A stretch of DNA of 64,000 bases from Candidatus Latescibacterota bacterium (lineage in GTDB: Bacteria > Latescibacterota > UBA2968 > GCA-2709665), in NCBI GenBank assembly GCA_965116875.1, contig OZ220733.1, positions 4,480,001 through 4,544,000 of the forward strand. Direction: 5' to 3'. The notes beneath the pieces are model-generated. The model searched no databases, was not told the origin of the DNA, and saw only the letters and a list, made by a program, of their open reading frames with translations. Each line of letters starts with the position of its first letter. Within the stretch, counting starts at the first letter, position 1. The position numbers and the translations under genes are program-made. Shown here piece after piece: positions 50,951 to 55,941 of this stretch.

Positions 50951-52027
50951 TCAATCTATTCTGATACGCTGCAGATCGTAGGAATCGATATTGTAGGGTT
51001 CAAAGGTATCGTCATCTCCGGGCGTGTAGACCGCCAGGTACAAATACTCATCGTTGTTGTCGATGGCGATGCCTCGTTCCCTGAGGTTTCCGGCCGCAAG
51101 AAAGTAGCGCTTCTCCAGTTTGGTCTGCGTATCGAACTCAACGATAAAAACGCCCGCTTCATCAGCGTCTGTAGGCGCGACAAATAACCGGCGGCCGTCG
51201 CGGCTCAGCGCGAGCCCCAGTGCGGGCGACTTGATTTCATATTTCCCGGACAGGGTCAGGTCGTCGGTACTGAATGCCCAGAGGTCCTTAACGTGGCCGC
51301 GGTCTTCCGGATCCGCCAGACCCAGATAGAGATGCTCGTTGAGGGGGCCAATGACGAAATCGTTGATCTTGGCTGAGAAACTGAACCGGGTTGAGGTGGT
51401 CTCCGTGGTGGGGAATCGTCCTGAAGCGTCGTATTTCAGCACATTGTTTCTGGCGGCGACAAACAGCTTTTGGTCCCCGTGGCTCATCTGAAGCGCGCCG
51501 GAACGCACGTTCCCGCTTGACTCGAGGTTGTCCACAATCGAAACTGCGATCAGCAACGGTTCATCCAGAGAGGAAACATAGACCGTCGAGTCGGTTCCGC
51601 AGACGATGTGGGAAATGTCATTCAGCGTAAAGGGAACCGTCTTCACAATGGCGAATGAACTCAGGTCGATTACCTTGAGGTTCGATTCGCCGTTCAAACC
51701 CACCACCAGACGGCGTTGATCCGGCGTGATGTCAATGTCGACGGGGTGGGAACCAACCTGAATGCTCCCGTCGACGGACATCCGGCTGCCGAGGTGGATA
51801 CGGAGTATCCGGTTGTTTCCGTAATCGGCCAGATACAGATATGGCTGATTCGGATCCATGACCATATCGGAGATGTTCACGCCGAGTTCGAGTATTTCGA
51901 AATCTTCGATCTCGTAGAACTGCTCAGGCTCCTCGTCGTCAAGATAGAGCGAGCAGCCCGCCACAAAAAGGGTTACGCACAGGGCAAGAAAAACGAACCG
52001 GCCGCTTTTCTTTCCAATTCGGTGCAT
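50951..52027 (-). CDS. YncE-like beta-propeller lipoprotein
   Basis: Lipobox LFVAG-C after a basic N-terminus and hydrophobic stretch; repeated blades (VGSHPVDIDITPD, GLALSRDGR, GIAIDNND). Confidence 0.75.
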   Translation of the reverse strand: MHRIGKKSGRFVFLALCVTLFVAGCSLYLDDEEPEQFYEIEDFEILELGVNISDMVMDPNQPYLYLADYGNNRILRIHLGSRMSVDGSIQVGSHPVDIDITPDQRRLVVGLNGESNLKVIDLSSFAIVKTVPFTLNDISHIVCGTDSTVYVSSLDEPLLIAVSIVDNLESSGNVRSGALQMSHGDQKLFVAARNNVLKYDASGRFPTTETTSTRFSFSAKINDFVIGPLNEHLYLGLADPEDRGHVKDLWAFSTDDLTLSGKYEIKSPALGLALSRDGRRLFVAPTDADEAGVFIVEFDTQTKLEKRYFLAAGNLRERGIAIDNNDEYLYLAVYTPGDDDTFEPYNIDSYDLQRIRID

Positions 52028-52041
52028 GCCGGATCGCCTGA

Positions 52042-52155
52042 GAAGTTGTGTTAAAATTACCGGTGAGTTCCCGAGCGCGAGCGAAAAAGCGCCTGCCTGC
52101 CTTGCCTGCGGCAGCAGGCAGATGCGAAGACTGCTGGGAATTTTAAGACAGTTTC
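52042..52155. mobile_element. MITE, GAAGTTGT-family copy B (114 bp)
   Basis: Terminal inverted repeats GAAGTTGTGTTAAAATTACC / GGGAATTTTAAGACAGTTTC; first 46 nt match 59428-59473 at 39/46; right end also aligns. Confidence 0.75.
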
Positions 52156-53120
52156 TAAAGCGAGATAGCATATGACGTGCTCAGCTCGACCAGATAGTCC
52201 GATGTGAGCTGGCTCTCGTTCACGTTTTGAAAGACGACAAAGGGCATGTGAAATTCAACGCTTAAATTGTCCAGTACGTTGAACCCCAATTCGGGCGAAA
52301 GATACATCCACTTTCCTCCGCGTTCTCTGGTTATCTGTCCGTACTGATATCGGTCCCTCGAGGTGATCAGGTTTTTGAGGCTCACCCCGCCGTACAGCCA
52401 GCCTCCACCCTCGTATTCCAGAGAGAGGCTTGCGTGCAGTTCGTTTCCGTATTTGTAGCCATAGATGTTCTGCCTTGAGGTGATGCGTGTGAACACACCT
52501 GCTGAAACCGTGAGATTTTCGAAACGATGGAAACCATGGATCGCCAGAATCGGATCCACACTTCCCGACCCGATCTGCAGGTTGTCGGAGAAACGCTCGC
52601 CGTACCGGTCCTTGGCATCCACGGAACCGTTTGCCAGCTTCAAACCGATGCCGAAATTCATCCCGGGAAAGCCCGCCGCGAGGGGAGCGGCGTAATTAAG
52701 CATAGCCACGATATCGCCGAGGCCGGAAGCATTCCGGACGTACTTGCCACCCTCATATTGATTGGGATTCTGACCCCGCAACAGCACCTTTTCGTTGGTT
52801 ACGGAACGAAAGGGTACGGCGAGGGCAAGACCGATGTGCCCGGAAACGCCCAGCGAGGCAAACAGGGTGGTTGTGGCATTGTCCGTTCGCTCGCGATTGA
52901 CGTTCGGAATGGCGCGCGACCCGTAGTGGGGGTCTGACAGGAATTCGTAGTCGTAATGCACGCTGAGCTTCAACTGATCCTGCACGGCGAGACTGTTCTT
53001 CATGAGGCTCCCGCCCGGGAGCACGGGGCGTCGTCAGCTGACGCCGCCCTGAGCGTGGGCGGCCGGCGCAGCGACAAATCGCGCCAGAAGAAACAGGAAG
53101 AGTACTGCGGACGTTCGCAT
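52155..53120 (-). CDS. Outer-membrane beta-barrel ('transporter'/Phenol_MetA_deg-like), candidate selenoprotein with Sec at codon 29 (TGA 53034-53036)
   Basis: ATG 53120 after AAGGA gives signal peptide MRTSAVLFLFLLARFVAAPAAHA, then QGGVS-TGA-RRPVLPGG in frame with the 289-aa ORF. Barrel motifs GLGDI, GLKLANG, QIGSGSVD, YKYGNE, LSPELGF. SECIS-like hairpin follows the TGA. Confidence 0.75.
53007..53022 (-). promoter_or_regulatory. Putative bacterial SECIS element
   Basis: GCTCCC[GGGC]GGGAGC; the stem starts 11 nt and the loop 17 nt after UGA, and the loop begins with G. Confidence 0.65.
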
Positions 53121-53361: not shown

Positions 53362-53435
<74 letters not shown>

Positions 53436-53452
53436 TTTTTGCATCAACCTGT

Positions 53453-53530
53453 GGTGGGTGTAGCTCAGATGGTTAGAGCGCCTGGTTGTGGCCCAGGAGG
53501 TCGGGGGTTCAAGTCCCCTCACTCACCCCA
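53453..53530 (+). tRNA. tRNA-His(GTG)
   Basis: G-1, acceptor GTGGGTG/CACTCAC, C73, encoded CCA; anticodon arm CCTGG-TTGTGGC-CCAGG. Confidence 0.97.
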
Positions 53531-55341: not shown

Positions 55342-55941
55342 TTGATAAAACTGTTGCTGGCTTTTTTCGGAATGGGTGTCGTGGCGGTGGGCGCGCACGC
55401 CGACCGGGAACACGTGATGGACACGAGCGAAGAGAATATGAAACGGATTGCCGCGTCACTCGGGGTACGGTGTGCTCATTGTCACACTGCACGCACACCG
55501 GATGGAAAGCCTGACTTTATGGCGCCTTCGTTGTTCAAGCAGACAGCCGTCCACATGAAAGTTCATTTTGTGGACGGCCTGAAAACACAGGACGGGAAGG
55601 CGCTGGACTGCATGTCTTGCCACCGGGGAAGGGCCCGATTTATACCGCGGGATCTCGCCGGCGCCAAACCCTCCAATCTGTCTGAGCGGATGCCGCGGCG
55701 GGAGATTTATCGGAAGATGAAGGCTATTGAGTCAGCATTGGGGGTAAACTGTGAATTTTGTCACGTCAGGCGTGAGGATGGACGCCTCGCGCCGGAGCAG
55801 CCCACCCGACACAAGCTGATGGCGAAATATATGATGGACCACTACGAGGGATCGCTCGTCACATCGGACGGGTCGCCGGTCACGTGCGGAACCTGCCACG
55901 CCGGCGCGGCAGAATTTCTGCCGCGTTCCGCGGGTGAATAA
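55342..55941 (+). CDS. Secreted tetraheme c-type cytochrome (two tandem diheme repeats; PufC-like MxxIxxxLGVxCxxCH units)
   Basis: Signal peptide ending AHA; CAHCH, CMSCH, CEFCH, CGTCH; clear internal duplication. Confidence 0.85.
   Translation: MIKLLLAFFGMGVVAVGAHADREHVMDTSEENMKRIAASLGVRCAHCHTARTPDGKPDFMAPSLFKQTAVHMKVHFVDGLKTQDGKALDCMSCHRGRARFIPRDLAGAKPSNLSERMPRREIYRKMKAIESALGVNCEFCHVRREDGRLAPEQPTRHKLMAKYMMDHYEGSLVTSDGSPVTCGTCHAGAAEFLPRSAGE

Follow-up and report, generated by a model that had tools for sequence, protein, structure and literature searches.

Two groups of described proteins come close to the gene reported here, namely outer-membrane channels whose lumen is occupied by the N-terminal segment and outer-membrane beta-barrels that contain selenocysteine (Sec). 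FapF belongs to the first group, and its N-terminal segment occludes the channel lumen. In the COG4313 channel Pput2725 (PDB 4RL8), the lumen is filled by an N-terminal stretch of ~14 residues that folds inwards from the periplasmic side (PMC4493636). The second group is represented in Table 1 of a 2026 review, a table of 119 prokaryotic selenoprotein families which lists the GSU2204-family MtrB/PioB barrel (NF041027) and a TonB-dependent receptor with an FCYXU motif (NF049945), both predicted by comparative genomics (PMC13188914). In this study, we report the analysis of a window of 64,000 nucleotides (nt), that is, the whole stretch of DNA analysed, from Candidatus Latescibacterota bacterium (contig OZ220733.1, positions 4,480,001 to 4,544,000); unless otherwise indicated, coordinates are window positions. 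On comparative sequence evidence, its minus strand carries at 53120-52155 what is, with a probability of about 0.93, one selenoprotein gene, in which a UGA would be decoded as Sec by SelB through a hairpin, and whose product would be exported and folded into a 12-stranded barrel of the COG4313/FapF type.

The Sec-containing barrels already listed are unrelated to this protein and much larger, one being a porin-cytochrome conduit and the other a 22-stranded receptor, and neither of the two models matches it; the channel reported here is small and has Sec at the N-terminus of its mature form. A barrel of the COG4313/PF13557 type is absent from the 119 families of that table (PMC13188914). Likewise, no paper on a Sec-containing barrel of this type was found in the literature, with the supplementary tables of selenoproteome studies, which might list it as a hypothetical family, lying outside the search. 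The statement of the initial annotation that no outer-membrane barrel selenoprotein of this family had been described is thus supported, but given the GSU2204/MtrB-PioB type and the TonB-dependent receptor, the outer-membrane location is not unprecedented. Sec recoding of the standard kind and a barrel fold already described are combined here in a new way, together with a conserved module that is also new.

Translation with genetic code table 11 gives, in this frame, only an open reading frame (ORF) of 289 amino acids (aa) that starts at GTG 53024, ends at 52155 and lacks a signal peptide, which is the form reported by gene callers. In the same frame, an upstream ATG at 53120 is preceded at 8 nt by a Shine-Dalgarno-like AAGGA (53133-53129, read directly) and opens a signal peptide of the Sec-pathway (export) type, M1-A23, ending in AHA/Q (53120-53052). 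The complete frame consists of 321 codons followed by TAA (52157-52155), and its single internal stop is the TGA at 53036-53034, codon 29. The N-terminus of the product is thus MRTSAVLFLFLLARFVAAPAAHA/QGGVS-U-RRPVLPGGSLMK, with RRPVLPGG directly after Sec. Numbering Sec as mature residue 6 presumes cleavage after AHA, which was set by rule and not by a predictor. Eleven nt after the TGA there is a perfect GC hairpin, GCUCCC-GGGC-GGGAGC (53022-53007), which resembles a selenocysteine insertion sequence (SECIS) and also encodes (V)LPGGS. The mature barrel, as translated, contains zero Cys. All of the elements of the gene proposed by the initial annotation, from the ORF without signal peptide and the upstream start with its AAGGA and leader to the TGA at mature residue 6 (QGGVS-U-RRP) and the hairpin, were recovered.

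If the UGA were a true stop, as the gene callers annotate, the locus would hold a 28-codon leader ORF and a barrel without signal peptide, or else a pseudogene or a sequencing error. It must be noted that a barrel without signal peptide cannot reach the outer membrane, and that the contigs of the source run had 0 differences from the window, with indels in no run. In addition, conservation across four phyla extends to the frame, the leader and the flanking residues, and Marinimicrobia lack any start codon close to the UGA: the largest table-11 ORF begins there ~100 codons downstream, so that the first strands would be lost. The comparative data already contradict a true stop, which we consider hardly credible.

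The conservation of the codon was assessed by a six-frame search of 61 genomes (our own and 60 relatives), which gave matches in 20 of them, and by further scans of collections with one genome per species (sets of 15 and 44 loci) and of metagenomes (4 loci); the loci overlap among scans and their union comprises 62 distinct genes. All 33 matches of the six-frame search that cover codon 29 had exactly one TGA, at that codon, within the motif AQ[GP]GVS-TGA-RRPVLPGG. Each of the 15 genus genomes contributed two of them, an orthologue with 80-95% identity and a paralogue with ~52%, and the other three were loci from a sister genus; the second Sec-barrel copy of our own genome, ~52% identical, has its UGA at genome position 3,963,974. 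The TGA was found at the equivalent codon in 15/15 and 43/44 loci of the species-level scans, the 44th lacking the N-terminal half, and in the 4 metagenome loci, which came from a scan seeded with the Ser variant P0018 described below. The TGA-bearing loci, 37-95% identical, belong by their record titles to Latescibacterota (own genus, with some records labelled Gemmatimonadota), KSB1, Calditrichaceae, Fidelibacterota/Marinimicrobia and the 'FCB group'.

None of the 95 loci in which the N-terminus could be read (62 distinct genes) had TGG, TGY or CGA in place of the TGA. An in-frame hydrophobic leader or signal peptide precedes the TGA in 48/48 loci, and in all 62 distinct genes. In those 48 loci, all six Arg codons occur both at Arg+1 and at Arg+2, four different codons occur at Pro+3, and Ser-1 is encoded by AGC, AGT or TCA, a pattern showing that the codons on either side of the UGA evolve under protein selection. 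The expectation that homologues would show TGA or Cys at this position, with conservation on both sides, was thus borne out for TGA and for the flanking residues, while no close relative with Cys was found. Nor did any homologue show Trp, Arg or Gly from a sense codon, since the Trp seen in database proteins corresponds to TGA in the genomes.

With respect to the decoding capacity of the organism, its single-contig genome contains selA, selB and selD with 549, 373 and 366 bits, respectively, each above its cut-off, and a tRNA-Sec gene (selC) next to selB, so that the complete set anticipated by the initial annotation is present. The selD gene contains one TGA and is in this genome a selenoprotein gene itself (L012:1520-1570). 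The second UGA gene already noted in the window was also recovered: the CUAEP motif (TGC TGA GCG GAG CC) lies on the minus strand at 10690-10677, close to the gene end, and its TGA is followed at a distance of 14 nt by the hairpin AGAGC-aguuc-GCUCU. Among five outgroup genomes with the barrel gene, selA and selB scored over the cut-off in four, the fifth being a metagenome-assembled genome (MAG) of 2.1 Mb. An alternative genetic code with TGA as a sense codon was considered and rejected, given that TGA is the commonest terminator of long frames: among 1306 frames of at least 500 codons in the genome, 727 end with TGA, 333 with TAG and 246 with TAA.

The hairpin that follows the UGA was compared with the SECIS of Escherichia coli fdhF, which starts 11 nt after its UGA. 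Both are short, have the same distance to the UGA and carry G in the apical loop, but the stem of the barrel hairpin is only 5-6 base pairs (bp), its loop is a 4-nt NGGN and it lacks the bulged U. Its design is that of the selD gene of the same genome, where an identical 11-nt spacer is followed by CAGUCC-GGUC-GGACUG, also a 6-bp stem with a 4-nt loop. Among 41 distinct hairpin sequences the 5-bp core was paired in every one, with one core pair varying as C:G (29), U:A (11) and U:G (1); the closing pair was G:C in 16, A:U in 7, G:U in 2, U:A in 2 and unpaired in 14. The covariation score was 0.221 against 0.117 in shuffles, a value that 0/500 shuffles reached, and 94% of the cells were paired as compared with 24-69% when the partner was slid. 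At the codon level, in the same 48 loci as above, Leu+5 is only CUC (35) or CUU (13) and Gly+8 only GGG (36) or GGA (12), and the two choices co-vary; the Gly codons upstream are, by contrast, mostly GGC and GGU. Inside the hairpin, only those codons are used that maintain the pairing. A second hairpin, GGCGUC...GACGCC, whose loop contains the UGA, is predicted at 53045-53027 of the minus strand; Latescibacterota retain it in part (G:C or G:U), and Marinimicrobia do not.

UGA is the leakiest stop codon in bacteria, and it could be read through here without Sec, either by near-cognate insertion of Trp, Cys or Arg or as a low-level leak. This would leave unexplained a hairpin with compensatory changes, its fixed 11-nt distance and a design like that of the selD SECIS, as well as the zero replacement by TGG, TGY or CGA in the 95 loci and the co-occurrence with selA and selB. 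We regard it as very improbable.

A search among 5.8 billion proteins returned 72 homologues, most of them of 282-289 aa and covering at most 90% of the query. Sixteen were examined, of which eight start just after the UGA and eight span the site; six of the latter show W and two show Ser (P0016, P0018). As the W of those six proteins is TGA in the corresponding genomes, it results from gene calling with a code in which TGA is sense. Trp is shown for TGA in P0032, P0036, P0037, P0039, P0040, P0061, P0079 and P0143, from Marinimicrobia contigs, and the other records are mostly truncated after the TGA. A form with Cys in place of Sec was not present among the 72 homologues, where the site is spanned in eight of the 16 examined. 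The suggestion of the initial annotation that relatives may carry Cys at this position was therefore not confirmed: two close homologues have Ser, and the distant ones have a Cys-Cys pair 2-3 residues upstream. Cys-containing homologues are a usual, though not an indispensable, feature of bacterial selenoprotein genes. NCBIfam holds no model for the Sec barrel or for these Cys-Cys relatives, and the Pfam model PF13557 (Phenol_MetA_deg) scores 21.5 bits on the barrel, under its cut-off of 22 bits, while several relatives carry a PF13557 match. The family is systematically mis-annotated, either as a truncated gene or with Trp.

The AlphaFold2 (AF2) model of the barrel, built on an alignment of 127 sequences, had a predicted local distance difference test (pLDDT) score of 90.9 and a predicted TM-score (pTM) of 0.85. 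Its best solved match was 4rl8, the COG4313 channel Pput2725 (Z 25.9, root-mean-square deviation 2.3 Å over 253 residues, model residues 35-319 onto residues 1-268 of the chain), and FapF (PDB 5O65) was matched with Z 23.7 and a Foldseek E-value of 9e-12. From the model, the protein is predicted to be a 12-stranded outer-membrane channel of the COG4313/FapF type, in agreement with the beta-barrel identity first proposed for it. With Pput2725 it has in common the 12 strands, an N-terminal segment before strand 1 and the weak similarity to PF13557. It differs in that identity is 10%, the N-terminal segment is ~11 residues longer and includes Sec and an invariant URRPxLPGG, and its conserved neighbours are a propeller lipoprotein and a TlpA-like gene, with no link to genes of aromatic or lipid catabolism. 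With FapF the likeness is of fold only: there is no Fap operon, no FapF NCBIfam match and no coiled-coil N-domain, and Sec is present.

Model residues 35-48 align with the lumen-inserted N-terminus of 4rl8, and residues 24-34, including Sec29, are of low pLDDT. In that alignment, Sec lies ~6 residues N-terminal to the equivalent of the Pput2725 plug, in a part of the model of low confidence. By analogy, the first ~25 mature residues (QGGVS-U-RRPVLPGG...) probably precede strand 1, within the lumen or at its periplasmic mouth, and such a position would put the plug in possession of a lone selenolate.

The next gene downstream (52027-50951, minus strand) encodes a lipoprotein of 358 aa, a 7-bladed beta-propeller of the YVTN/YncE type. 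It starts at ATG 52027 and has a lipobox (...LFVAG-C25, codon 51955-51953) followed by SLYLDDEEPEQFYE. The co-oriented YncE-like lipoprotein partner of the initial annotation is thus upheld as a conserved neighbour, but its start is this ATG and not that of the longer ORF from 52171. The assignment is based on Pfam Lactonase (28 bits against a cut-off of 21.7; the Pfam YNCE model itself was not matched), on an AF2 model with pLDDT 87.4 and on Foldseek matches to 1l0q (E 8e-14) and to YncE (3vgz, TMq 0.76), and a look-up in the ESM Atlas returned for the propeller only generic Lactonase/YncE clusters. A propeller lipoprotein stands directly downstream of the barrel in 15/15 orthologue and 15/15 outgroup loci. 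In these 30 homologues a lipobox-type Cys, recognised without a dedicated predictor, is followed by S-L-Y-x-D-acidic-P; their alignment showed neither a conserved Cys in the mature propeller beyond the lipidated one nor a conserved Cys/His/Met cluster. The lipoprotein is a putative obligatory partner, either substrate-binding or an adaptor at the surface or in the periplasm.

The second neighbour of the barrel family is a TlpA-like gene, which immediately precedes the barrel in 15/15 paralogue loci, in 2/3 sister-genus loci and in 8/15 outgroup loci. Its best NCBIfam matches were ResA, DsbE and TlpA, all below the family cut-offs. In the paralogue locus of our own genome (C1:3,962,0xx-3,964,840; L067:6078-8859) the genes encode an NHL-repeat propeller lipoprotein, a TlpA/ResA-like thioredoxin with a signal peptide and the sequence WATWCKTC, the barrel and a SAM methyltransferase. 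This layout is common to all 15 genus genomes, and the order NHL lipoprotein-TlpA-barrel also occurs in the sister genus. KSB1, Calditrichaceae and part of Fidelibacterota have instead a single locus with the TlpA-like gene, the barrel and a YVTN lipoprotein (8/15 loci). Given this single-locus order in the outgroups, the ancestral module was likely formed by reductase, Sec barrel and propeller lipoprotein, and it was likely split over two barrel copies in the genus of the window.

Other features of the surroundings were also recorded. The barrel and lipoprotein genes are separated by a 127-nt spacer with two short dispersed repeats (~52041-52091 and ~52095-52156, together 52041-52156) that have ~97 and ~65 copies in the genome by blastn. 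In four runs contig depth was ~100-fold higher over these repeats, where contigs pile up and break, and the orthologous spacers vary in length. On the other strand, just upstream of the promoter region of the barrel gene, there are tRNA-Arg(TCT) and tRNA-His(GTG) genes (53362-53530), and a gene for a multihaem cytochrome c of 199 aa (55342-55941) is located 2 kb from the barrel gene. An FG-GAP/ASPIC (UnbV) protein is encoded near the Sec-barrel module in 14/15 outgroup loci (L052-L066 except L064); both of those scanned (L062, L057) had a sorting tail of the type IX secretion system, and in KSB1 the gene has the same direction as the TlpA-like gene, the two overlapping by 4 nt.

As regards function, Sec would act as a redox-active or thiophilic selenolate on the N-terminal plug, and the metal- or redox-gated channel of the initial annotation is likewise a conjecture. 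More specifically, the selenolate could be a redox-active centre recharged by the periplasmic TlpA/ResA-like reductase, to which we give slightly less than an even chance. Oxidising or thiophilic molecules entering the channel would react with the plug selenolate, and the oxidised selenolate would be returned to the reduced state by the dedicated periplasmic thioredoxin (WATWCxxC). The use of Sec instead of Cys would be explained by the need of a lone exposed chalcogen to withstand irreversible over-oxidation in an oxidising compartment, and the resistance of Sec to it is established chemistry. Since there is no Cys in the mature barrel and none conserved in the mature propeller, a redox partner would have to be external. 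A lone selenolate without partner Cys, genetically tied to a reductive thioredoxin and never replaced by Cys, fits a redox-cycling centre on the plug. In this regard, thioredoxins of the TlpA/ResA/CcmG kind keep specific extracytoplasmic Cys sites reduced. The neighbour resembles them in its WATWCxxC, its signal peptide and its best matches to ResA, DsbE and TlpA, and differs from them in scores below the cut-offs and in its proposed client, a selenolate on an outer-membrane barrel, for which we know of no precedent with a TlpA-like enzyme.

A different role, in which Sec would be a gate latch or the precursor of a modification, for example to dehydroalanine or a cross-link, by which the plug is fixed or released without turnover, would agree with the occlusion of the lumen by the N-terminal segment in FapF and in COG4313 channels (for the latter, PMC4493636). 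Ser, which can also be dehydrated, replaces Sec in two homologues, and a radical-SAM selenoprotein gene is present in the same window. No modifying enzyme is conserved beside the gene, though, there is no partner Cys in barrel or propeller, and the TlpA-like neighbour argues for reversible redox chemistry; we find such a latch improbable.

Several results weigh against a selenoprotein gene whose product carries a redox centre. The folding energy of the hairpin is unexceptional (z -0.81, with 39/200 shuffles folding as well), so that the case for it relies on conservation and covariation, and part of that conservation could be at the protein level because the hairpin also encodes the conserved peptide LPGG. 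Rfam gave zero matches to SECIS families and, beside tRNA, only matches at chance level. The presence of Ser at the Sec position of P0016 and P0018 indicates that some function survives without Se or S. Neither a known catalytic fold nor a resolving residue is present in the barrel, and the location of Sec29 is not modelled with confidence, since residues 21-30 have a mean pLDDT of 55 and the match to 4rl8 begins at residue 35. Lastly, the barrel copy of the window has no adjoining TlpA-like gene.

Full-length homology to the Sec barrel (hhalign 100%, E 3e-46) extends to approximately 70 distant proteins (P0087-P0220) with 20-27% identity. Their signal peptide is immediately followed by Q-x-C-C-[ST]-x-G-x-P, or in some of them by a variant with CxC or CxxxC. 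These Cys-Cys (CC) barrels come from Ignavibacteria, Bacteroidota, KSB1 and Krumholzibacteriia (loci L070-L088). In hhalign and in a MAFFT alignment with Sec coded as X, the N-termini align without gaps (Q1, G2, S5, P9, L11), with CC at positions 3-4 and Sec at 6; Sec falls in the first Cys column only when it is coded as C in MAFFT. Strictly, a Cys at the Sec position is thus not found, although both have a chalcogen site on this short segment. The two kinds of barrel have in common the N-terminal scaffold and, in several loci, thioredoxin-fold neighbours. The CC barrels differ in having two Cys instead of one Sec, 2-3 residues nearer to the N-terminus, a Big_9/PKD partner instead of a propeller and, in some cases, a location in mer operons.

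Of the 19 CC-family loci analysed, which were obtained with 7 closer members of the family, 14 have a small Big_9/PKD protein ahead of the barrel; thioredoxin-fold proteins occur in ~7, MerA-like proteins in five, MerT-HMA in four, CopZ-like proteins in three and a CsoR repressor in one. The two MerA-like proteins that were scanned, encoded after the barrel in L087 and L070, are bona fide MerA (TIGR02053), with 534 and 516 bits against a cut-off of 454. The loci with MerA or MerT-HMA genes beside the CC barrel are L070, L071, L084, L085 and L087, from KSB1, Krumholzibacteriia and Ignavibacteria-like MAGs. To judge from their gene context, these barrels may belong to mer operons as an outer-membrane component so far overlooked. 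In five of the 19 loci (L072, L076, L077, L078, L083) the CC barrel is adjoined by a DUF3179 protein, a family listed as containing selenoproteins in the 2026 review (PMC13188914).

The mercury context raises the alternative that the selenolate of the Sec barrel is a soft-metal ligand, which would capture Hg(II), Cu(I) or organomercurials and pass them to periplasmic carriers, with the TlpA-like protein only keeping the ligand reduced. CC pairs in MerT and MerC bind Hg, and TlpA keeps the cysteines of Cu sites reduced. The homologous CC relatives have an invariant Q-x-C-C on the common scaffold and occur in mer-type operons with MerA over the cut-off, MerT-HMA, CopZ-like and CsoR proteins nearby, and the 2026 review implicates the majority of transporter proteins that contain Sec in resistance to heavy metals (PMC13188914). 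On the contrary, no metal gene was found by Pfam in the seven Sec-family loci scanned (window, L067, L068, L062, L057, L052 and L066), and in our own genome HgcA was not found and no MerA scored over the cut-off. Furthermore, Hg(II) prefers two ligands and one Sec provides one, a conserved Cys/His/Met cluster is missing from the propeller, and Sec falls outside the CC columns in 2/3 alignments. A soft-metal ligand is for these reasons rather unlikely in our opinion.

Returning to the redox-active selenolate, a broader picture can be drawn, only tentatively and with the odds against it as a whole. It would be an outer-membrane selenium redox relay with Sec on the channel plug, recharge by the TlpA-like protein and a propeller lipoprotein, ancestral to several phyla of the FCB group, among them the marine Marinimicrobia, which are abundant worldwide. 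Its targets would be molecules that pass through the channel, whether peroxides, soft metals or reactive species of sulfur or selenium, and the CC cousins would perform a hitherto unrecognised outer-membrane step of mer systems.

The finding would extend the known selenoproteins by a widespread family overlooked in current annotation, and selenium would have a place at the outer membrane of uncultured bacteria that are abundant and, by their record titles, come from marine water and sediment. Sec barrel, thiol reductase and propeller lipoprotein make up a defined unit of three parts and, because no Cys form was found, this module bears on the choice of Sec over Cys. In some phyla, the CC barrels beside MerA and MerT may point to a protein-mediated entry of mercury across the outer membrane.

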